This document shows, in pieces, positions 6,262 through 58,614 of a stretch of 64,000 nucleotides of DNA. Below the pieces are notes generated by a model. The model saw only the letters and a list, made by a program, of their open reading frames with translations. It had not been told where the DNA came from and made no database searches. The stretch is taken from assembly GCF_003790525.1 (NCBI RefSeq), contig NZ_CP033635.1. One strand, written 5' to 3'. Source of the DNA: Escherichia coli (GTDB taxonomy: Bacteria; Pseudomonadota; Gammaproteobacteria; Enterobacterales; Enterobacteriaceae). How positions within the stretch are numbered: the stretch's first letter is position 1; every line of letters begins with the position of its first letter. Both the position numbers and the translations under genes were made by a program.

Positions 6262-6845
6262 TTATTTTTCCCATCGATTTCGCCCACTTTCTTTCGCCCG
6301 GTATAACGCAGCGTCGGCATCTGAAATAATTTGTTCAGCCGTTTTTGCGGGAGCAGAACAGGTAATCCCCTGACTAACCGTAACGAATGCATTAACAGCA
6401 GATGCCTGATGCGGGATAGCTGCCAGTTTAAGTTCTTGCTTCACTCTGGCTGCTACCGTCTCTGCTTCCGGCAATGTTGCATTAAAAAGTATGATGACAA
6501 ACTCTTCGCCACCATAACGGACAACAACATCCTCCGACTGGCGAGTTGAACGCTGTAGAGCGTCGGCAACTTGTATTAGACAACGATCCCCAGCAGGATG
6601 CCCGTAAGTGTCGTTGTAACGTTTAAAAAAATCGACATCCAGCATAATAAGAGCAAATGACCCGCCGTTATCTATCGCGTCGTGTAAGATACTGTTCATT
6701 GCACGTCGGTTTGCTATCCCAGTTAAAGGATCACGATGTGCTAATGCATCAAGGCGATTAATTAACTGGTTGTTATAACTGTTTTGTACCCATGCTTCTT
6801 CAAACCAACGTAACAAAATGAGTCGCCCACCATATAGCGCCAGTG

Positions 6846-6853
6846 AAAAAATA
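6846..6853. repeat. IS1 target-site duplication, left copy (aaaaaata)
   Basis: Same 8-bp sequence directly flanks both IS1 ends. Confidence 0.6.
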
Positions 6854-6868
6854 GGTAATGACTCCAAC

Positions 6869-7372
6869 TTATTGATAGTGTTTTATGTTCAGATAATGCC
6901 CGATGACTTTGTCATGCAGCTCCACCGATTTTGAGAACGACAGCGACTTCCGTCCCAGCCGTGCCAGGTGCTGCCTCAGATTCAGGTTATGCCGCTCAAT
7001 TCGCTGCGTATATCGCTTGCTGATTACGTGCAGCTTTCCCTTCAGGCGGGATTCATACAGCGGCCAGCCATCCGTCATCCATATCACCACGTCAAAGGGT
7101 GACAGCAGGCTCATAAGACGCCCCAGCGTCGCCATCGTGCGTTCACCGAATACGTGCGCAACAACCGTCTTCCGGAGCCTGTCATACGCGTAAAACAGCC
7201 AGCGCTGGCGCGATTTAGCCCCGACATAGCCCCACTGTTCGTCCATTTCCGCACAGACGATGACGTCACTGCCCGGCTGTATGCGCGAGGTTACCGACTG
7301 CGGCCTGAGTTTTTTAAGTGACGTAAAATCGTGTTGAGGCCAACGCCCATAATGCGGGCTGTTGCCCGGCAT
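6869..7372 (-). CDS. insB: IS1 InsB (catalytic part; InsAB' is made by -1 frameshifting)
   Basis: 167-aa ORF matching IS1 InsB; overlaps insA in the -1 frame as in canonical IS1. Confidence 0.9.
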
Positions 7373-7566
7373 CCAACGCCATTCATGGCCATATCAATGA
7401 TTTTCTGGTGCGTACCGGGTTGAGAAGCGGTGTAAGTGAACTGCAGTTGCCATGTTTTACGGCAGTGAGAGCAGAGATAGCGCTGATGTCCGGCGGTGCT
7501 TTTGCCGTTACGCACCACCCCGTCAGTAGCTGAACAGGAGGGACAGCTGATAGAAACAGAAGCCAC
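7291..7566 (-). CDS. insA: IS1 InsA (transposition repressor / N-terminal part of the transposase)
   Basis: 91-aa [42 protein letters not shown]… is the IS1 InsA sequence. Confidence 0.92.
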
Positions 7567-7621
7567 TGGAGCACCTCAAAAACACCATCATATACTAAAT
7601 CAGTAAGTTGGCAGCATCACC

Positions 7622-7629
7622 AAAAAATA
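7622..7629. repeat. IS1 target-site duplication, right copy (aaaaaata)
   Basis: Same 8-bp sequence directly flanks both IS1 ends. Confidence 0.6.
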
Positions 7630-8142
7630 CACCATACAACAGCAAAATGAATATTGATCTGTTGATTAAGCATAAGACTCGCTATTGGAGTGGTGAACCA
7701 TAAGGGAATGACAAATGCGAGCAATGATGGGGTATGGAAATAAAGTGCGATAACGCCACTAAGCATTAATAATACACATAGTGGATAAGCAAACTGCAGC
7801 GTCCAGTACGCAATAAAGTGATAACTACACCATGACCATAGCAGGCTCAGGGCAACTAATAGCACCTGGATAGGTAATGTTTTTTGCCGAGGGATGAGTA
7901 GTAAACCACTGCAAATCAGCAGAATACCCGTTGCAGATATATCAATAGAATGTATAAGGCTTTTTTCATTTAACCAGGGTGGAGTAAGGTCATTAAACAG
8001 AACACGGCGCAGCAAAATTATCAATGCAAAACTGACATTGATAAAAGCAAACCATGGCAAACTAATCGTCATGCCGCGAATAACCATATCGCGGCGGGTT
8101 TTCCATGAGTGATGCGTTTTTCTTCGTTCAGCCATTTTTTAA

Positions 8143-11437: not shown

Positions 11438-12283
11438 ATGACGCCCATTCTGAATCATTATTTTGCCCGTATTAACTGGTCGGGAGCTGCTGCGGCCAAT
11501 ATTGATACGCTGCGTGCATTGCACCTGAAACACAATTGCACCATTCCATTTGAAAACCTCGACGTTTTGCTGCCAAGGGAAATACAGCTTGATGATCAAT
11601 CGCTGGAAGAGAAACTGGTGACAGCCCGTCGTGGCGGTTACTGTTTTGAGCAGAATGGCGTGTTTGAGCGTGTGTTACGCGAGCTGGGGTTTAACGTTCG
11701 CAGCTTGTTAGGGCGCGTAGTGTTATCAAATCCGCCAGCATTACCGCCGCGCACCCATCGTTTGTTGTTGGTGGAACTGGAAGGGGAAAAATGGATTGCT
11801 GATGTCGGTTTCGGTGGACAGACGCTAACCGCGCCGATTCGGTTAGTTCCCGAGCTCGTGCAGACCACGCCACACGGAGAGTATCGGTTGTTGCAGGAGG
11901 GTGATGATTGGGTGTTGCAGTTTAATCATCATCAGCACTGGCAGTCGATGTACCGTTTTGATCTCTGCGAGCAGCAACAAAGCGATTATGTGATGGGCAA
12001 TTTCTGGTCGGCGCATTGGCCGCAGTCGCATTTTCGCCATCATTTGCTGATGTGCCGCCATTTACCGGACGGCGGCAAGCTGACACTGACCAATTTTCAT
12101 TTTACCCATTATGAAAATGGGCACGCAGTTGAGCAGCGAAATCTACCAGATGTGGCGTCGTTATATGCCGTGATGCAGGAACAGTTTGGTCTGGGCGTAG
12201 ATGATGCGAAACATGGCTTTACTGTGGATGAGTTAGCGCTGGTGATGGCGGCGTTTGATACGCACCCGGAGGCGGGAAAATAA
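11438..12283 (+). CDS. nhoA: Arylamine N-acetyltransferase (N-hydroxyarylamine O-acetyltransferase)
   Basis: 281-aa ORF with the NAT-family catalytic cysteine context (…RRGGYCFEQN…). Confidence 0.9.
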   Translation: MTPILNHYFARINWSGAAAANIDTLRALHLKHNCTIPFENLDVLLPREIQLDDQSLEEKLVTARRGGYCFEQNGVFERVLRELGFNVRSLLGRVVLSNPPALPPRTHRLLLVELEGEKWIADVGFGGQTLTAPIRLVPELVQTTPHGEYRLLQEGDDWVLQFNHHQHWQSMYRFDLCEQQQSDYVMGNFWSAHWPQSHFRHHLLMCRHLPDGGKLTLTNFHFTHYENGHAVEQRNLPDVASLYAVMQEQFGLGVDDAKHGFTVDELALVMAAFDTHPEAGK

Positions 12284-12293
12284 TTTATGTCAG

Positions 12294-12375
12294 GTTGCCG
12301 GATGTGGCGTAAATGCCTAATCCGGCATACATTAGTCCGGTTGTAGGCCTGATAAGCGAAGCGCATCAGGCAACG
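12294..12375. repeat. REP/BIME-type extragenic palindromes between nhoA and yddE
   Basis: Two palindromic units (gccggat…atccggc and gtaggcctgataagcgaagcgcatcaggca) with the characteristic REP signature. Confidence 0.5.
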
Positions 12376-12378
12376 GTT

Positions 12379-13272
12379 TCAGAGTTTAATTGCCCATTCG
12401 GCATGAAACAAAATCACCGCCGTGCCAGAAATGGTGACTTTCTCCGGTTGGTTATCACGAATTGTCACCGTCACTTCAATCACGCCGTCACGCCCTAATG
12501 CGCGCCCCTGATGGCCTTTAACACGCAACACGTTGCCATCGTGTGGCAATACGTTGTGATGTACTAACTATGCACCCATCGGGCCATTGGCATTGCCAGT
12601 CACCGGATCTTCCACAATACCAATCGCAGGCGAGAACATGCGACCATCGGTTTCGTTTTTGCCTGGGCGGATCTGGAACGGGAAGAAACCATTGCAGCCA
12701 ATCTGTTTGCTGATTGTGGTCAGCGCAGCAAGGTCAGGCGAAAGGGCGTCGATATCCACTTCCGGCTTCAGTGGAATCATCACTTTTGAGTGTCCTGTGG
12801 TAGCCACCTGGATTGGCAAGCCTTGCAAAATATCGTCTTCAGTGAGATGAAGCGCGTTGATAATCGCTGCACGTGTTTCACCTTCCAGCGGTGGTTCAAA
12901 GCCCGGCGTACCTTGCTCCAGCGAAATACGATAATCATCATTTTGCTTTTCGATAGTCACACGATGTTTTCCTGCCAGCGACGTTTGCCAGACGGTGCAA
13001 TTTCCTAAACCTAACACCTTTGCACGTACATAGTGCGCAGCTACTGTCGCGTGACCACAAATCGGAACTTCAACCGTTGGCGTAAAGTAGCGGATGCGCA
13101 CATCGCTGTCGTCGCTGTGCAGCAGAAAAGCAGTTTCCGAATGACCTAACTCGCGGGCGATAAGCTGCATTTGCGCTTCGCTAAGATTATCGGCGGGGAA
13201 AACAACACCGGCAGAATTGCCGCGAAACGGTTGAGAGGTAAAAGCATCGACGTGGTAAACCTGCGGTTTCAT
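12379..13272 (-). pseudogene. yddE: PhzF-family isomerase YddE, interrupted by an in-frame amber codon
   Basis: The ORF stops at TAG (plus-strand cta, 12568-12570) after 234 codons; the same frame then runs a further 62 codons to TGA at 12379-12381, giving the 297-aa full-length YddE. Confidence 0.7.
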
Positions 13273-13351
13273 TAATGTTCTCCTGTGGCTGGAGAACTAT
13301 CATAGCCTGCAAGTGGCCGGAGAGCGAAGAGCTATCCGGCCCGCGAGAGAA

Positions 13352-14032
13352 TTAACGCCGCGAACGCACAATCTGATACCGACGAGTAAAGTACTCAAAC
13401 GGCGCGCTCCAGACATGCACCAGTCGGGTGAACGGGAAGAGCAGAAAGATGGTCATTCCAAGCACCAGATGAACGCGGAATATAAAGGCGACACCATCAA
13501 GATGCGTAGATGCACCGCCCTGGAAAGTGACAATGCTTTGCGCCCAGCCCACCAGCTTCATCATTTCACTGCCGTCCGGATGTTGTGCTGAAAAAGGAAT
13601 GGTGGTTAACCCAAGAATGCACTGAATTAACAAAATGGCGAGGATCAGGATATCCGCACCAGAAGACGTCGCCCTGATACGCGGATTTGTTAAACGACGC
13701 ACCAGTAGCCCCGCACCGCCAATCAGCGTCAATACCCCGCATATTCCGCCGAGGATCATCGCCATCTGCTGTTTTACCGCCACCGGCAGAAACCACGCGT
13801 ACATCCAGTGCGGTGTTAACATGCCGAACAGGTGCCCGAAGAAAATCCCCAAAATGCCAATATGGAACAGATTCGACCATATCACCATCCCGCGTTTATC
13901 GAGCATTTGACTTGAGGAGGCGCGCCAGGTGTACTGCCCGTAGTCATAGCGCAGCCAGCTGCCAAGGAAAAACACCGTCGCACAAATGTACGGGTAGATA
14001 TCGTAAAAAAAGACGTTCAGATACTGAATCAT
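13352..14032 (-). CDS. narV: Nitrate reductase Z gamma subunit (heme b membrane subunit)
   Basis: 226-aa multi-TM ORF; 4-bp overlap with narW. Confidence 0.9.
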
Positions 14033-14724
14033 TTCCCACCTCCCGCACTGATGTCGACATATTGCGGCGCGACATCCTGGCTAAAGCGTCGCTGATATTG
14101 ATTAAGCGGCGAGCTGTCACACGCCGTGGCGTTATCTTCAATAAACTTCACCTGTTCCTCTTCCCACACCGCATCCAGTGCCTGGCGGGTGTCATCGCGC
14201 TCCTCACTGTTCACCTGTTTTGTGACACTGTCACTTGAAAGTGTACTTCCTGCCAGTTGCAACAGGGTGTCAAATAACGCGTACCACGGTGCCTCGCGTT
14301 GTTTTAAGCGTCCGCCAAGCAGGGCGAGGATCGGCGCAACGTTGAGCAAGCCTTCTTTCGCCTGATCGTCCGGCAGTACGCTTAAGTACTCCAGATACAG
14401 CGGTAGATAATCGGGCAGTTCTCGACAATCCAACTGCAGGCCGACCTTTTCATACTCCGCCAGCAGGTCCACCATTGCCTGGCCGCGATCGCGGGACTCG
14501 GCATGAACATGTTCGAACAGCAGCAGCGATGTGGTACGTCCACGGTCAAACACTTCGCACCATTCGGCCTGTTTATCCAGCAGCGGCGCGTTAAGCAGGT
14601 TGCGGGTAAAATCCGTAAGCATCGGTGCGTCGCGGCGGATCAACGCCAGCGCGTCCTCCTTACATTCCCACAACAGCTCGTCCGGATACTCCATCAACAG
14701 GCCGATCACTTTGAGGATCTGCAT
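14029..14724 (-). CDS. narW: Nitrate reductase Z assembly chaperone (NarJ-type)
   Basis: 231-aa ORF between narY and narV, translationally coupled to both. Confidence 0.9.
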
Positions 14725-16268
14725 TATTCGCCCTCCGCTTTGTCGCGCACTTCGGTGATGTTGATGGCATCGATACGGCTACTGTTGAACAGGTTGAATT
14801 TGCTGTCCGAGCCGTGGCAACCGTCGCCAAAGGTAAAACCGCAGCCGTTGCGTTCTGCGAAGGCATCGCCCGCCATTTCCCGATGGCTTGTCGGGATGAC
14901 AAAACGGTCTTCATAGTTGGCAATGGCGAGGTAACGATACATCTCTTCGACCTGGGCGACGCTCAGACCTACTTCGTCGATGGCACGAGTATCAGTAACG
15001 CCTTCCACGGTTTGTGAACGCATATAGTGGCGCATCGCCATCATCCGTTTCAGCGCCCGCAGTACCGGACCGGTATCACCGGCACTCAACATATTGGCGA
15101 GATATTGCACCGGAATACGCAGGCTTTCGATGGCGGGCAGCACGCCTTCGCTTTTCGGCAAACCTCCCGCATCAGCGTAGGACTGAATCGGTGACAGCGG
15201 CGGAACGTACCAGACCATCGGCAGGGTGCGGTATTCAGGGTGCAGCGGTAGCGCCAGTTTCCAGTCCATTGCCATTTTGTAGACTGGCGAACGCTGGGCA
15301 GCGTCAATCACGTTTTGTGGAATACCTTGTTTCAGGGCTTCCTCGATCACCGAGGGATCGTGCGGATCGAGGAACACTTCGCACTGGCGTTCATAGAGGT
15401 CAACTTCGCGCTCGGTGCTCGCCGCTTCCTCGATGCGGTCGGCGTCGTAAAGCAGCACGCCCAGATATCGGATGCGACCCACGCAGGTTTCTGAGCACAC
15501 GGTGGGTTGGCCTGACTCAATTCGTGGGTAACAGAAGATGCATTTTTCTGACTTGCCGCTTTTCCAGTTGAAGTAGATTTTTTTGTACGGACAACCGCTA
15601 ATGCACAAACGCCAGCCACGGCATTTATCCTGATCAATCAGCACAATGCCGTCTTCTTCACGTTTGTAGATAGCACCGCTTGGGCAGGTCGCCACGCAGC
15701 TGGGATTGAGGCAGTGTTCGCACAGGCGCGGCAGGTACATCATGAACGTGTTTTCAAACTGCCCGTACATCTCCTTTTGCATGGCCTCGAAGTTGCGGTC
15801 GCGGGCGCGTTTTTCAAATTCGCCGCCCAACAATTCTTCCCAGTTTGGCCCCCAGATCACTTTGTCCATCCGTTTGCCGTCAATCAGTGAACGCGGGCGC
15901 GCAGTAGGAATATGTTTACCTTCTGGCGCGCTATGCAAATGTTCGTAGTCGAAGGTGAAAGGTTCGTAGTAATCATCAATCTGCGGCACCACCGGGTTGG
16001 CGAAGATTTTGGTAATCACGCCCATCTTGCTGCCCAGACGCGGGCGGATCTTGCCATTCACATCACGCACCCAGCCGCCTTGCCACTCTTCCTGATCTTC
16101 CCAGTTTTTCGGATAACCAATGCCCGGTTTGGTTTCGACGTTGTTAAACCATGCGTACTCCATGCCTTCGCGTCCGGTCCAGACGTTTTTACAGGTCACC
16201 GAACAGGTATGGCAGCCGATACATTTATCGAGGTTAAGCACCATGCCGACTTGCGAACGTATTTTCAT
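14724..16268 (-). CDS. narY: Nitrate reductase Z beta subunit (Fe-S)
   Basis: 514-aa ORF with several ferredoxin-type Cys clusters (CIGCHTCSVTC, CEHCLNPSCVATCP…). Confidence 0.92.
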   Translation of the reverse strand: MKIRSQVGMVLNLDKCIGCHTCSVTCKNVWTGREGMEYAWFNNVETKPGIGYPKNWEDQEEWQGGWVRDVNGKIRPRLGSKMGVITKIFANPVVPQIDDYYEPFTFDYEHLHSAPEGKHIPTARPRSLIDGKRMDKVIWGPNWEELLGGEFEKRARDRNFEAMQKEMYGQFENTFMMYLPRLCEHCLNPSCVATCPSGAIYKREEDGIVLIDQDKCRGWRLCISGCPYKKIYFNWKSGKSEKCIFCYPRIESGQPTVCSETCVGRIRYLGVLLYDADRIEEAASTEREVDLYERQCEVFLDPHDPSVIEEALKQGIPQNVIDAAQRSPVYKMAMDWKLALPLHPEYRTLPMVWYVPPLSPIQSYADAGGLPKSEGVLPAIESLRIPVQYLANMLSAGDTGPVLRALKRMMAMRHYMRSQTVEGVTDTRAIDEVGLSVAQVEEMYRYLAIANYEDRFVIPTSHREMAGDAFAERNGCGFTFGDGCHGSDSKFNLFNSSRIDAINITEVRDKAEGE

Positions 16269-19200
16269 TTTTTCGCCTCCTGAACCTGATCGCGACCTTC
16301 ATCATCCAGCCAGTTAACGTTCTTCATCTTGCGGATCATGATGAATTCGTCGCGGTTCGAGCCGACGGTGCCGTAGTAGTTAAAGCCCCAGGCCAGCTGC
16401 GCGTAACCGCCAATCATATGCGTTGGTTTCGGACAAACGCGGGTGACCGAGTTATGAATGCCGCCGCGCATGCCAGTTACTTCCGAACCAGGAATATTCA
16501 TAATGCGTTCCTGGGCGTGATACATCATGGTCATACCCGGCGGTACACGTTGGCTGACCACCGCGCGGGCAGTCAGCGCGCCGTTGGCGTTAAACACTTC
16601 CACCCAGTCGTTATCGACAATGGTCAGTTCACGGGCATCGGTTTCGCTGATCCAGACAATTGGTCCACCGCGAGAGAGCGTCAGCATTAGCAGGTTTTCA
16701 CTGTAGGTTGAGTGAATGCCCCATTTCTGGTGCGGCGTCAGGAAGTTAAGTGCTTTTTCCGGGAAGCCGTTTGGCGGTATCTGGCGCATTTCACTGACGC
16801 TACGGGTGTCGATAGGCGGGCGATAAGCCACCAGGCTTTCACCAAAAGCACGCATCCACGGATGATCCTGATAGAGCTGCTGGCGTCCCGACAGCGTGCG
16901 CCACGGAATTAACTCATGAACGTTGGTGTATCCCGCGTTATAGGAAACGTGATCGCTTTCCAGACCGGACCATGTGGGGCTGGAGATAATTTTACGTGGC
17001 TGCGCCTGAATATCGCGAAAGCGAATCTTCTCGTCCTCTTTGTGCAGCGCCAGATGGGTATGTTCGCGTCCGGTGATCTCGCCCAGCGCCTGCCACGCTT
17101 TGACTGCAACATGACCGTTGGTTTCCGGTGCCAGCGCCAGAATCACTTCTGATGCGTCAATGGCGGTGTCAATCAGCGGACGCCCCTGTGCCGGGCCTTC
17201 ACGCTTGGTGTAGTTGAGTTTGCCGAGGAAATCGATTTCATCCTGGGTATTCCACGAAATCCCTTTACCGCCGTTGCCAAGTTTGTCCATCAATGGCCCG
17301 AGCGAGGTAAAGCGTTCATAGGTAGCAGGGTAGTCGCGTTCCACCGCCACAATATTGGGCGCGGTTTTACCCGGGATCAGATCGCATTCGCCTTTGCGCC
17401 AGTCGAGCACTTCACACGGCTGGGAGAGTTCTGCCGGAGAGTCATGTAGCAGTGGTTGTAATACCACGTCGGTTTCTTTGCCAAGATGACCCACGCACAG
17501 TTGCGAAAATGCTTTGGCGATACCTTTGTAGATTTCCCAGTCGCTGCGTGATTCCCACGCCGGATCGACCGCCGCAGAAAGCGGATGAATAAACGGATGC
17601 ATATCCGAGGTGTTCATATCGTCTTTTTCGTACCAGGTGGCGGTGGGCAGAACGATATCGGAGAACAGGCAGGTACTGGACATACGGAAGTCGAGCGTCA
17701 CCAGCAGGTCGAGCTTGCCTTCAATCGCCGCAGTTTGCCACTCGACTTCTTCCGGTTTGATCCCGTCGCTGGCACCGAGTTCCTCGCCCTGAATCCCGCT
17801 TTCGGTCCCCAGCAGATACTTCTGCATATACTCGTGGCCTTTGCCGGAGGAACCAAGCAGGTTAGAACGCCAGACAAACAAATTACGCGGATGATTGCTG
17901 CCGCTATCGGGTTGTTCGCAGGCCATACGTAAATCGCCCGATTTCAACGCCTGGGCGGTGAATTCTGTGGGAGATAATCCGGCCTTGTCGGCTTCAGCTT
18001 TAATCCCGAGCGGATTACGCCCCAACTGCGGCGCAGAAGGTAGCCAGCCCATACGTTCGGCGCGAACGTTGAAATCAATCAGATGACCGCTGTACTTACT
18101 GGCATCGGCAAGCGGTGAAAGTAACTCCTGAGCAGAGACTTTTTCATAGCGCCATTGGCTGGAATGATTGTAGAAAAACGAGGTGCTGTTCATCTGGCGC
18201 GGTGGTCGGTTCCAGTCGAGCGCAAAGGCCAGAGGCAGCCAGCCGGTTTGCGGGCGCAGTTTTTCCTGACCGACATAGTGTGCCCAGCCGCCACCGCTTT
18301 GCCCGACACAACCGCAGAAGATCAGCATGTTGATCATCCCACGGTAGTTCATGTCCATGTGATACCAATGGTTGACGCCAGCACCGAGGATAATCATCGA
18401 ACGCCCATGCGTTTTATGGGCGGTATCGGCAAATTCACGGGCGATGGTTTCAATATACTGGCGCGGCACGCCGGTAATTTGCTCACCCCAGGCTGGGGTG
18501 TACGGTTTGATTTCAGCGTAATCTTTCGCGCTGTTTTCATCTTCCAGCCCGCGATCGAGGCCATAATTCGCCAGTACCAAATCATAAACGCTGACGACCG
18601 GACAGGTGTTGCCATCGGCTAATGTCAGGTTTTTAACGGGCAATTGGCGCACCAGGACCGGATTGTGTTTTACGCGGCGAAAATGCGGATTTTCAATGCC
18701 GCCAAAGTAGGGGAAGGCCACGCCTGCAACGGCATCATGTTGACCGAGCAGAGTTAACGACAATTCGGTTTCCGTACCGGCGGCAATGGATTCCAGATTC
18801 CATTTGCCTTTTTCTCCCCAGCGAAAACCAATCGAACCGTTCGGCACCACCAGTTCACCTGCGGTATTAACTGCCACGGTTTTCCACTGCGGATTATTGC
18901 TTTCGCCCAGTCCATCCACCAGGTCAGATGCGCGGACCATGCGCCCGGGAACGTAGCTGCCGTCGTCGCGAGGTTCCAGCATTACCAGCATCGGCATGTC
19001 GCTGTAGCGGCGGCAGTAGTTGATAAAGTAGTCGCTGGGATTATCGAGATGAAACTCTTTTAAAATGACATGGCCCATTGCCATTGCCAGGGCACTATCA
19101 GTGCCTTGTTTCGGTGCCAGCCACTGGTCGCACAATTTGGCCACTTCAGAGTAGTCAGGGGTAATGGCGATGGTTTTAGTGCCTTTGTAGCGTACTTCGG

Positions 19201-20005
19201 TAAAGAAATGGGCGTCCGGCGTACGTGTCTGCGGTACGTTAGACCCCCAGGCGATGATGTAACTGGAGTTATACCAGTCGGCAGATTCCGGTACGTCGGT
19301 TTGCTCGCCCCAGGTCATCGGCGAGGCGGGCGGCAGGTCGCAATACCAGTCGTAGAAGCTTAAACAGGTGCCACCTAACAGCGACAGATAACGTGTTCCG
19401 GCGGCGTAAGAAACCATCGACATCGCCGGGATCGGCGAGAAACCGGCAACGCGATCCGGGCCGTAAGTTTTGATGGTCCAGACGTTAGCAGCGGCAATCA
19501 GCTGGTTTAGCTCCTGCCAGTTGGAGCGGATAAAGCCGCCGCGTCCACGTACTTGTTTGTAGCTCAGGCACTTTTGCGGATCGTTCATAATTGATGCCCA
19601 CGCCAGTACCGGATCGCTGTGTTGCTTGAGGGCTTCGCGCCACAGTTCAATCAGTCGTTTACGAATGAGCGGGTATTTCAGGCGGTTAGCGCTGTAGAGA
19701 TACCAGGAGTAACTTGCGCCACGCGGGCAGCCGCGAGGTTCGTGATTTGGCAGGTCAGGGCGAGTGCGCGGGTAGTCGGTCTGTTGGATTTCCCAGGTCA
19801 CCAGACCATTTTTAACGTAGATTTTCCAGCTACAGGAGCCTGTACAGTTAACACCGTGGGTGGAACGCACGATTTTGTCGAACTGCCAACGCTGGCGATA
19901 GCTGTCCTCCCAGTCGCGGTTGCTATGCATCACCTGTCCGTGACCATCGGCAAAGGTATCGCCCTTTTGTTTGAAGTAGCGAAAGCGATCCAAAAGTTTA
20001 CTCAT
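16265..20005 (-). CDS. narZ: Nitrate reductase Z alpha subunit (molybdopterin catalytic subunit)
   Basis: Start set to the ATG of MSKLLDRFRYFKQ… (20003-20005), giving 1246 aa; the ORF-track start at 20128 is an upstream extension. Confidence 0.92.
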   Translation of the reverse strand: MSKLLDRFRYFKQKGDTFADGHGQVMHSNRDWEDSYRQRWQFDKIVRSTHGVNCTGSCSWKIYVKNGLVTWEIQQTDYPRTRPDLPNHEPRGCPRGASYSWYLYSANRLKYPLIRKRLIELWREALKQHSDPVLAWASIMNDPQKCLSYKQVRGRGGFIRSNWQELNQLIAAANVWTIKTYGPDRVAGFSPIPAMSMVSYAAGTRYLSLLGGTCLSFYDWYCDLPPASPMTWGEQTDVPESADWYNSSYIIAWGSNVPQTRTPDAHFFTEVRYKGTKTIAITPDYSEVAKLCDQWLAPKQGTDSALAMAMGHVILKEFHLDNPSDYFINYCRRYSDMPMLVMLEPRDDGSYVPGRMVRASDLVDGLGESNNPQWKTVAVNTAGELVVPNGSIGFRWGEKGKWNLESIAAGTETELSLTLLGQHDAVAGVAFPYFGGIENPHFRRVKHNPVLVRQLPVKNLTLADGNTCPVVSVYDLVLANYGLDRGLEDENSAKDYAEIKPYTPAWGEQITGVPRQYIETIAREFADTAHKTHGRSMIILGAGVNHWYHMDMNYRGMINMLIFCGCVGQSGGGWAHYVGQEKLRPQTGWLPLAFALDWNRPPRQMNSTSFFYNHSSQWRYEKVSAQELLSPLADASKYSGHLIDFNVRAERMGWLPSAPQLGRNPLGIKAEADKAGLSPTEFTAQALKSGDLRMACEQPDSGSNHPRNLFVWRSNLLGSSGKGHEYMQKYLLGTESGIQGEELGASDGIKPEEVEWQTAAIEGKLDLLVTLDFRMSSTCLFSDIVLPTATWYEKDDMNTSDMHPFIHPLSAAVDPAWESRSDWEIYKGIAKAFSQLCVGHLGKETDVVLQPLLHDSPAELSQPCEVLDWRKGECDLIPGKTAPNIVAVERDYPATYERFTSLGPLMDKLGNGGKGISWNTQDEIDFLGKLNYTKREGPAQGRPLIDTAIDASEVILALAPETNGHVAVKAWQALGEITGREHTHLALHKEDEKIRFRDIQAQPRKIISSPTWSGLESDHVSYNAGYTNVHELIPWRTLSGRQQLYQDHPWMRAFGESLVAYRPPIDTRSVSEMRQIPPNGFPEKALNFLTPHQKWGIHSTYSENLLMLTLSRGGPIVWISETDARELTIVDNDWVEVFNANGALTARAVVSQRVPPGMTMMYHAQERIMNIPGSEVTGMRGGIHNSVTRVCPKPTHMIGGYAQLAWGFNYYGTVGSNRDEFIMIRKMKNVNWLDDEGRDQVQEAKK

Positions 20006-20099
20006 GACATAACTCCTGCTCCAGGAATGAATTGGGATCTGATGCTTTGTCGGGTGCGACACGGTTGTAGCCTGATAAGACGTGTCAGGCATCGATCTC

Positions 20100-35884: not shown

Positions 35885-36316
35885 ATGACAATCCATAAGA
35901 AAGGTCAGGCACACTGGGAAGGCGATATCAAACGCGGGAAGGGAACTGTATCCACCGAGAGCGGCGTGCTGAACCAACAGCCGTATGGATTTAACACGCG
36001 TTTTGAAGGCGAAAAAGGAACCAACCCTGAAGAACTGATTGGCGCAGCGCATGCCGCATGTTTCTCAATGGCGCTTTCATTAATGCTGGGGGAAGCGGGA
36101 TTCACGCCAACATCGATTGATACCACCGCCGATGTGTCGCTGGATAAAGTGGATGCCGGTTTTGCGATTACTAAAATCGCACTGAAAAGCGAAGTTGCGG
36201 TGCCGGGTATTGATGCCTCTACTTTTGACGGCATTATCCAGAAAGCAAAAGCAGGATGCCCGGTTTCTCAGGTACTGAAAGCTGAAATTACGCTTGATTA
36301 CCAGTTGAAATCATAA
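35885..36316 (+). CDS. osmC: Osmotically inducible peroxiredoxin OsmC
   Basis: 143-aa OsmC/Ohr-family ORF with the two conserved cysteines (…AACFSMAL…, …AGCPVSQ…). Confidence 0.92.
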   Translation: MTIHKKGQAHWEGDIKRGKGTVSTESGVLNQQPYGFNTRFEGEKGTNPEELIGAAHAACFSMALSLMLGEAGFTPTSIDTTADVSLDKVDAGFAITKIALKSEVAVPGIDASTFDGIIQKAKAGCPVSQVLKAEITLDYQLKS

Positions 36317-56928: not shown

Positions 56929-58614
56929 TTATAAAACCGCGCTAATGTCACAAATATCATCGGCCAGGTTCCAGACACCGGGTTGATGTGTAACCATAAT
57001 GACGCCGCTTGTGGGGAGTTTTTCTCGCACTAAACGCAGTAAGCGGATTGCCTCTTGTTCCTCAAGATGAGAGGTAGTTTCGTCAAGAAATATCCATTTC
57101 GGACGTCGTAAAATTAATCGAGCCAGGGCGATACGTTGTTTTTCGCCGCTGGAAAGAATATCTCCCCAGCGATCGTGGTCATGAATACGCGTAGCCAATT
57201 TCCCCAGCCCAACCTGATGCAGTACTTCACTCAACGATTTATCGTCTACGGACAGGGGAAGTGCTTTACAAATAATCTCTTTCAGTAAGCCGGTTTTGAT
57301 TAACGGTGTTTGTGACACATACCAACTGTCAGCAGGAGAAGAAATATCACCTTTAAACCACGGCCAGCAGTGGGATAATGTTTTAAGCAGTGTGGTTTTT
57401 CCCGTACCAGAGTAACCTTTCAGCAATAGCCATTTGCCTGGCAAAACATGAAAGTTCAGGTTCTCTAATATGATCTTATTATCAGGAGTACGAATACTCG
57501 CGTCAGCCACTTGTACCGCATGTTGGCAATTTTTAGGCTTATTCGTAGGGCGCTGTTCGGTGAGTTGATGGAACTCAGACAAGCGATCGATAACCGCAGC
57601 CAGTACAGCAAGTTCATCATATTTATAAATAAACCAGCTTAAATTGTTCGATACCAGCATAAATGCCTGGCGCGATTTCATCAGTCCGCCCAGATTGATC
57701 TGTCCGCTAATAAACTGCGGCAATAACAGAAAGTAGGGAAGAACGCTAAGCGAGCGCGAATAAATATTCTGCCAGTAATCAAGCCACCGCTGACGATTCA
57801 TTAAACGATGCCAGTTCTCTTTAATGGTATGAAAATTTTCGCTCAACTCCTGGCGTTGTAGAGACTCAGCATTGCTTAGCGCAATCAGTTCTGCCTGCTT
57901 ATTATGCTGCACAAGATTAGTTCGAAATGTCGCTTCGCTACGTTGTTTTTCCACATTAAGCGGACGAATACGTTTACCAACCTTATGGGTAAATAAAGTT
58001 CCACCGATCACAATGAGCACGACGGTATAGACCATATACCCCTGGATATTCCATTCAGTTCCACCAACAGTGAATGAGAGCGTACCCGCGCTTTGCCAAA
58101 GAATAACGGTAAAGGTGATCAGCATGCTAAGTGACTGGATGAAGCCAAATGAAAGACTGAGCGTTTTGCTGATCAGTAAGAGAATGTCTTCAGCGATACG
58201 TTGGTCAGGGTTATCTGTATTTTTATGCTCGCCGTAGATCTGCGTGAAGTAGTAGTTTTTATCTGCAAACCAGCGATTAAGGTAGTAATCTGTTAACCAT
58301 TCGCGCCAGCGAATAGTCAGTAGTTTAATTAACCATGTTTTGTTTACGGATATTAATACAAAGATCCCCAGCAGGGCAGGGAACCAAAGGACAAGCTGCC
58401 AAAGCTTATCAGTTTCTTTCTGGCTTAGCGCATTGAAAAAATCATTATTCCAGTCGTTTAACCAGACCTGAATTTTAACCACGCCAAGGATCATGGCGAG
58501 GATAATAATGATTAACAACACTGAAGTTTTATTATTCTTACGCAGCCAAAAGGGCTTCAGCAGACAGAGATACTTTGCTATCAACATACAAAACGTAATG
58601 GGAATGGTTATCAT
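56929..58614 (-). CDS. yddA: ABC transporter, fused permease/ATPase (SbmA/BacA-like N-terminal domain)
   Basis: 561-aa ORF: N-terminal TM domain plus C-terminal ABC ATPase (GYSGTGKTT Walker A; LSSGEKQR signature). Confidence 0.88.
   Translation of the reverse strand: MITIPITFCMLIAKYLCLLKPFWLRKNNKTSVLLIIIILAMILGVVKIQVWLNDWNNDFFNALSQKETDKLWQLVLWFPALLGIFVLISVNKTWLIKLLTIRWREWLTDYYLNRWFADKNYYFTQIYGEHKNTDNPDQRIAEDILLLISKTLSLSFGFIQSLSMLITFTVILWQSAGTLSFTVGGTEWNIQGYMVYTVVLIVIGGTLFTHKVGKRIRPLNVEKQRSEATFRTNLVQHNKQAELIALSNAESLQRQELSENFHTIKENWHRLMNRQRWLDYWQNIYSRSLSVLPYFLLLPQFISGQINLGGLMKSRQAFMLVSNNLSWFIYKYDELAVLAAVIDRLSEFHQLTEQRPTNKPKNCQHAVQVADASIRTPDNKIILENLNFHVLPGKWLLLKGYSGTGKTTLLKTLSHCWPWFKGDISSPADSWYVSQTPLIKTGLLKEIICKALPLSVDDKSLSEVLHQVGLGKLATRIHDHDRWGDILSSGEKQRIALARLILRRPKWIFLDETTSHLEEQEAIRLLRLVREKLPTSGVIMVTHQPGVWNLADDICDISAVL

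Follow-up and report, generated by a model that had tools for sequence, protein, structure and literature searches.

Within a 64-kb stretch of Escherichia coli DNA (hereafter the window) the yddE reading frame stops at an amber codon, and the frame stays open for a further 62 codons behind it. This raises the question whether yddE was inactivated by a genuine mutation, whether the stop is an error of the record, or whether a useful YddE protein is still produced.

The yddE reading frame and the codon behind the stop

The open reading frame list, its translation and the sequence around the start codon define the following features at this locus:

12568..13272, minus strand: truncated yddE frame (ATG at 13272-13270, 234 sense codons, then TAG)
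12568..12570, minus strand: premature amber TAG at codon 235 (plus-strand CTA; mutated base 12569)
12379..12567, minus strand: orphaned 3' remainder of yddE (62 sense codons in frame, then the original TGA at 12381-12379)
13279..13284, minus strand: Shine-Dalgarno-like AGGAGA, 6 nt 5' of the yddE ATG
11438-12283, plus strand: nhoA, convergent with yddE

The original prediction had placed the amber codon after codon 234 and followed the frame through 62 further open codons. Position, codon count and peptide all agree with the translation, in which the 62-codon stretch (LVHHNVLPHDGNV...AEWAIKL) runs to the TGA without frame damage. The translation start signal of yddE is predicted to be intact, and the orphaned 3' part is no longer translated from it. 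What remains is the N-terminal 79% of a PhzF-family isomerase. When the TAG is read as a sense codon, the product has 297 amino acids, the length of K-12 YddE, as had been stated in the original prediction; the restored protein matches the K-12 crystal structure entry over its whole length (PDB 1qy9, 297 aa, E = 2.7e-197). A scan of the yddE region for promoters and terminators gave counts no higher than those in shuffled sequences.

Direct comparison with the yddE gene of strain SMS-3-5 (NC_010498.1 1718136-1719029, WP_000804420.1) revealed 893 of 894 bases in common. The sole difference is G704A, which turns TGG (Trp235) into TAG (W235*). At window position 12569 the plus strand has T where SMS-3-5 has C, corresponding to A and G on the coding strand. 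The part of the gene 3' of the TAG is 100% identical to SMS-3-5. The yddE gene of strain IAI39 differs at seven other sites, but has TGG at codon 235, and residue 235 of K-12 YddE is Trp as well. Judged by SMS-3-5, IAI39 and K-12, the ancestral codon 235 is TGG. The original prediction had guessed that a Tyr codon (TAT/TAC) was replaced, and this guess is contradicted by all three strains. Its proposal of a single-nucleotide nonsense mutation in an incipient pseudogene holds up: the allele is one base away from an intact one, the ancestral codon is TGG, and the downstream frame is undamaged. An in-frame stop facing a sense codon in the intact orthologues, with the ancestral state established, is what characterizes a nonsense pseudogene, and the window yddE shows both. 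We also considered a Dcm hot spot as the origin of the C-to-T change. The plus-strand context is CCATG and not the Dcm site CC(A/T)GG, and the change is therefore an ordinary G:C to A:T transition.

The window YddE and K-12 YddE (PDB 1qy9, 1qya, 1sdj) are encoded by the same gene at the same locus, and the restored protein is about 97% identical to the K-12 protein. Apart from codon 235, where TAG replaces TGG and leaves residues 1-234 only, the two differ by a few lineage-typical substitutions such as I94V, H110Q, P149Q and E296K.

Clone background and rarity of the allele

The 64 kb of the window align collinearly and in reverse orientation with SMS-3-5 (NC_010498.1, roughly 1.667-1.731 Mb), and the identity over this stretch exceeds 99.99%. 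Across the 64 kb we found three SNPs, one 1-bp indel and one 768-bp IS1 insertion, and nothing else. The polarity of these differences was set with two more members of the clone, strains 2D and KFu014. Private to the window lineage are yddE W235*, fdnG D66E (27214) and yddA Y346S (57578). Strains 2D and KFu014 have two private SNPs each in 39 kb, compared with three in 63 kb for the window, and members of the clone differ by about 5e-5 per site. This similar density rules out a hypermutator or a poor assembly as the source of the private changes. With so few differences over 64 kb, the clean background indicates that the change in yddE is recent. One private SNP of KFu014 also falls inside yddA, at window position 57125, and YddA of this strain is filed under a separate protein accession.

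The 1-bp indel concerns osmC (plus strand, about 35885-36316). At position 35956 the window has one C more than SMS-3-5 and encodes an intact OsmC of 143 aa; strains 2D and KFu014 match the window at this site, and osmC of SMS-3-5 is annotated as frameshifted. By this comparison the frameshift is private to the SMS-3-5 record, where it represents either a real mutation or an old sequencing error.

The IS1 insertion lies elsewhere in the window and involves these features:

6262-8135, minus strand: IS1-disrupted MASE5-GGDEF diguanylate cyclase gene (ECSMS35_RS08675 in SMS-3-5)
6854-7621: IS1 copy of 768 bp with InsA and InsB open reading frames (Pfam PF03811, PF12759, PF03400)
6846-6853 and 7622-7629: flanking repeats of the 8-bp target duplication AAAAAATA

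The element splits the cyclase gene inside the MASE5 sensor domain and is missing from this site in SMS-3-5. Among the matches listed, no complete genome covered the insertion contiguously. The IS1 insertion is a second recent loss-of-function event in the window lineage.

To place the TAG allele among known genomes, we searched 5,426 complete E. coli genomes with megablast. The 894-bp region found yddE in 5,394 of them, with no match at 100%; the best 24 genomes matched at 99.9%. SMS-3-5 and 23 other complete genomes of the clone have TGG and an intact gene, annotated as PhzF family isomerase, where the window has TAG. With a 61-mer that has the TAG at its centre, 4,301 genomes matched, but not one at 100%; for other haplotypes this result is still compatible with a TAG accompanied by a second nearby difference. 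A TAG-centred 31-mer had no match in the 5,426 genomes. Because megablast with a 31-mer depends on an exact 28-mer match, a genome without the A is not found, and the test covers those genomes that share the local haplotype. The control 31-mer with G matched 289 genomes, and the count for this haplotype is hence 289 G versus 0 A.

The pattern of private changes invites an adaptive explanation, in which selection, and not neutral drift, led to the loss of yddE in this clone. All three private SNPs alter proteins (the two besides W235* are missense), IS1 also disables a nearby diguanylate cyclase gene, and, as described below, the TAG is common to several sequenced samples. Three SNPs are, however, too few for any test, and the private SNPs of the relatives are mostly non-synonymous too. 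An excess of non-synonymous changes is usual in very recent divergence, before purifying selection acts. Furthermore, neither the 61-mer nor the 31-mer search detected a parallel W235* event in other lineages. We therefore regard selection for the loss of yddE as quite unlikely. A wider version, in which a selected yddE loss marks an expanding sub-clone of the SMS-3-5 lineage, perhaps together with the IS1 knock-out of the cyclase, or in which an amber suppressor is present, also seems quite unlikely to us.

The TAG allele in public assemblies

The original prediction had left open that the stop was a sequencing error. Under this explanation the true base would be G and yddE intact in the window genome, and the single-base substitution is indeed found in no complete RefSeq genome. 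Identical DNA from other sequencing runs argues against it. The exact 234-aa product is present in a collection of 15 billion proteins, where it is sourced from Logan assemblies only. Two contigs carry the TAG allele: one of 15,286 bp from SRR25608274, which 7 samples have in common, and one of 975 bp from SRR25608277. Both contigs, assembled independently from short reads, match the window at every base, TAG included, over 8,930 bp (SRR25608274) and 975 bp (SRR25608277). Since several independent read sets carry the TAG, a random sequencing error is not a likely source. The quality of the window is also high, with three SNPs and one indel relative to SMS-3-5 in 63 kb, and this one indel represents the intact osmC state that is common to strains 2D and KFu014. 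Moreover, modern assemblies do not typically fail by substitution errors. An error in the window genome is thus very unlikely, and the identical allele in the Logan assemblies indicates that W235* is a real mutation.

We then asked how the Logan isolates relate to the window genome. YddA with S346 and FdnG 1-195 with E66 have no record in the public exact-match collection, whereas the control FdnG with D66 was found in more than 21,000 blocks. The window genome itself is therefore not the source of the Logan assemblies. By its geometry, the SRR25608274 contig would span window positions 12343-27628, which include the site of fdnG D66E. The TAG-bearing Logan isolates thus probably lack D66E, and the TAG probably predates this change. 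The accession numbers of the runs are consecutive, and the runs could all stem from a single study of one clone; for this reason they speak for inheritance or reproducibility of the allele and not for a wide distribution. A literature search on the run accessions found no match.

The two Logan contigs have one end in common (…TCAGGCCTAC), at about 12343-12378 of the window and 3' of the yddE stop. This end falls in a REP-like palindromic sequence (gcctgatgcgcttcgcttatcaggcctac) between yddE and nhoA, which suggests that a dispersed repeat interrupted the assembly.

A metagenome contig from ENA (L006; ERZ27280762 k141_144179) was examined as a further candidate carrier of the TAG and was rejected. 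Its last bases are ...GCATG, so that it has the wild-type G and breaks off within codon 235. The contig corresponds to window positions 14104..12569 and has the exact yddE haplotype up to the variant base, at which it ends. This break could be due to chance, or to a split of the assembly graph at a G/A polymorphism with both alleles in the sample.

Consequences for YddE and for the clone

Profile searches place the encoded protein in the PhzF family (PF02567, TIGR00654, NF007625), with scores above the curated cut-offs. On the restored protein, Pfam PF02567 (PhzC-PhzF) covers residues 8-290 (E = 6.5e-93, 311.7 bits versus a cut-off of 27). The YddE equivalog profile NF007625 (cut-off 386) scores 553.4 bits with the restored protein and 444.7 bits with the truncated one, which covers profile positions 1-238 of 301.

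A homologue search in 1.84 billion representative proteins yielded 13,532 with E-values up to 0.001; full-length homologues, of about 285-310 aa, cover approximately residues 4-292 of the query. For the analysis of conservation, 80 homologues were aligned with the restored protein (81 sequences). The possibility raised in the original prediction that reference YddE proteins themselves end at residue 234 does not hold, since all 80 aligned homologues run 50-72 residues beyond position 235. Within this tail the residues Q255, G256, R261, G283 and A285 are each at least 90% conserved. Column 235 itself is aromatic, with Y in 71 of the 81 sequences and W in E. coli, and Y, W, L, H and F occur across the family.

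An AlphaFold2 model of the restored protein, built on the homologue alignment (mean pLDDT 97.1), agrees closely with the crystal structure 1qy9 (TM 0.99, rmsd 0.8 Å). According to the model, the stop lies inside helix 226-238, so that the end of the helix is lost, and the strands 248-255, 263-272, 275-283 and 285-292, all in the C-terminal domain, are deleted. The claim that the lost C-terminus is part of the PhzF domain is thus borne out by both profiles and by the model, and the translated product is incomplete with respect to the two-domain fold.

Among known enzymes, PhzF of Pseudomonas fluorescens (trans-2,3-dihydro-3-hydroxyanthranilate isomerase; PDB 1u1v, 1t6k, 5iwe) is a close counterpart and belongs to the same Pfam family. 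The YddE model has the same two-domain DapF-like fold (TMq 0.85-0.86 with 5iwe, 1t6k and 1xub, at 28-29% identity), and the catalytic Glu, His and Asp motifs of PhzF are conserved in the YddE sequence. P. fluorescens PhzF is full-length, whereas the window allele encodes a truncated, putative isomerase. To our knowledge E. coli has no phenazine pathway.

The catalytic residues of PhzF are E45, H74, D208 and S213 (PMC5524880). Their YddE equivalents, assigned by motif and not by superposition, are E46, H74, D222 and T225, and all of them precede the stop, as do the motifs SETAF, CGHAT and EDPVTG that contain them. Conservation in the 81-sequence alignment reaches at least 90% at H74 and D222 and is complete at E221 and G226; position 225 is T, S or N in all 81 sequences, and E46 lies within the consensus SETAF motif. 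By motif, the sequence of the truncated product hence contains the conserved active-site positions of the PhzF family. The scaffold around these residues is incomplete, and for this reason the truncated YddE is expected from conservation and the structure model to be misfolded and non-functional.

A full-length YddE could still be made if the amber codon were read through, naturally or by a suppressor tRNA, with a substitution at residue 235. The 62 downstream codons are perfectly intact, and the range of residues found at position 235 in the family means that insertion of Tyr would probably be tolerated. However, an intact tail is expected anyway at such a young age (about 5e-5 per site), and none of the 289 complete genomes that share the local haplotype has the stop. 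Natural isolates of E. coli seldom carry amber suppressors, and UAG is read through at a background rate well below 1%. Within the 64-kb window we found no tRNA genes. Functional readthrough is accordingly extremely improbable.

The gene might also have been shortened or split, with the 234-aa protein still active, either by itself or in combination with a C-terminal fragment translated on its own, and the position of all catalytic motifs upstream of residue 235 and a 56-aa open reading frame from a TTG at 12549 would fit this; we consider it extremely doubtful, given that all 80 homologues retain the tail with its near-invariant residues, that a core helix is cut and four long β-strands of the C-terminal domain are removed in the model, and that neither the TTG at 12549 nor the GTG and TTG codons just after it have a Shine-Dalgarno-like sequence in front of them. 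Reinitiation after the stop was rejected on the same ground, as the in-frame TTG and GTG codons have no such sequence in front of them. A natural two-piece gene of the PhzF family was not found among the homologues once truncated YddE-like representatives were left out.

P0016, P0020, P0029, P0030, P0040, P0052, P0062 and P0125 are such cluster representatives; they have 97-246 aa and are 80-99% identical to E. coli YddE over the N-terminal 71-182 residues only. Several partial or truncated products, among them P0016, P0020, P0029 and P0040, show 78-99% identity over part of the protein. These sequences look like frameshifted, truncated or contig-cut yddE products in other assemblies; in that case, sporadic disruption of yddE may be common, and disrupted alleles need not be exceptional in public data.

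Taken together, the stop is very probably a genuine, recent and lineage-specific nonsense mutation that inactivates yddE in a clone near-identical to SMS-3-5. In this explanation, a G:C to A:T transition at window position 12569 would have made Trp235 (TGG) an amber codon (TAG). Translation would end after residue 234; the catalytic positions would be kept, but the C-terminal domain would lose the last part of its central helix and the four β-strands that follow. The genes narZ, narY (annotated narH), narW and narV (annotated narI) lie upstream of yddE, and nhoA is convergent downstream. Because the next gene is convergent, there is no co-directional gene on which the stop could be polar, and no neighbour should be affected.

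The yddE gene is dispensable, and for this reason the allele can persist as a young pseudogene without further decay. E. coli survives the deletion of yddE in the Keio collection with no more than a mild sensitivity to boric acid, which can be complemented (PMC11502571), and megablast gave no yddE match in 32 of the 5,426 complete E. coli genomes. That the 62-codon tail is undamaged agrees with a very recent origin of the mutation, given the small divergence of the clone. The comparisons show the mutation itself, its polarity and rarity, its presence in independent assemblies, and the conservation and structural place of the lost segment; loss of function and near-neutrality of W235* are inferred.

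Ordinary nonsense pseudogenes of young clones likewise combine a single transition, a dispensable gene, an otherwise undecayed sequence and restriction to one young lineage, and no feature of the window yddE sets W235* apart from this pattern. The gene is well known and its stop an ordinary, recent and clone-restricted one, so that mechanistically nothing new is involved. For annotation, the locus should be treated as a pseudogene with an internal stop (W235*) and not as a gene for a 234-aa protein. W235* is a clean single-base marker of one sub-clone of the SMS-3-5 lineage and could be used for strain typing. Finally, the allele would amount to a naturally occurring yddE null mutation in a wild strain, and comparison with the intact sister strains could help to address the function of YddE.
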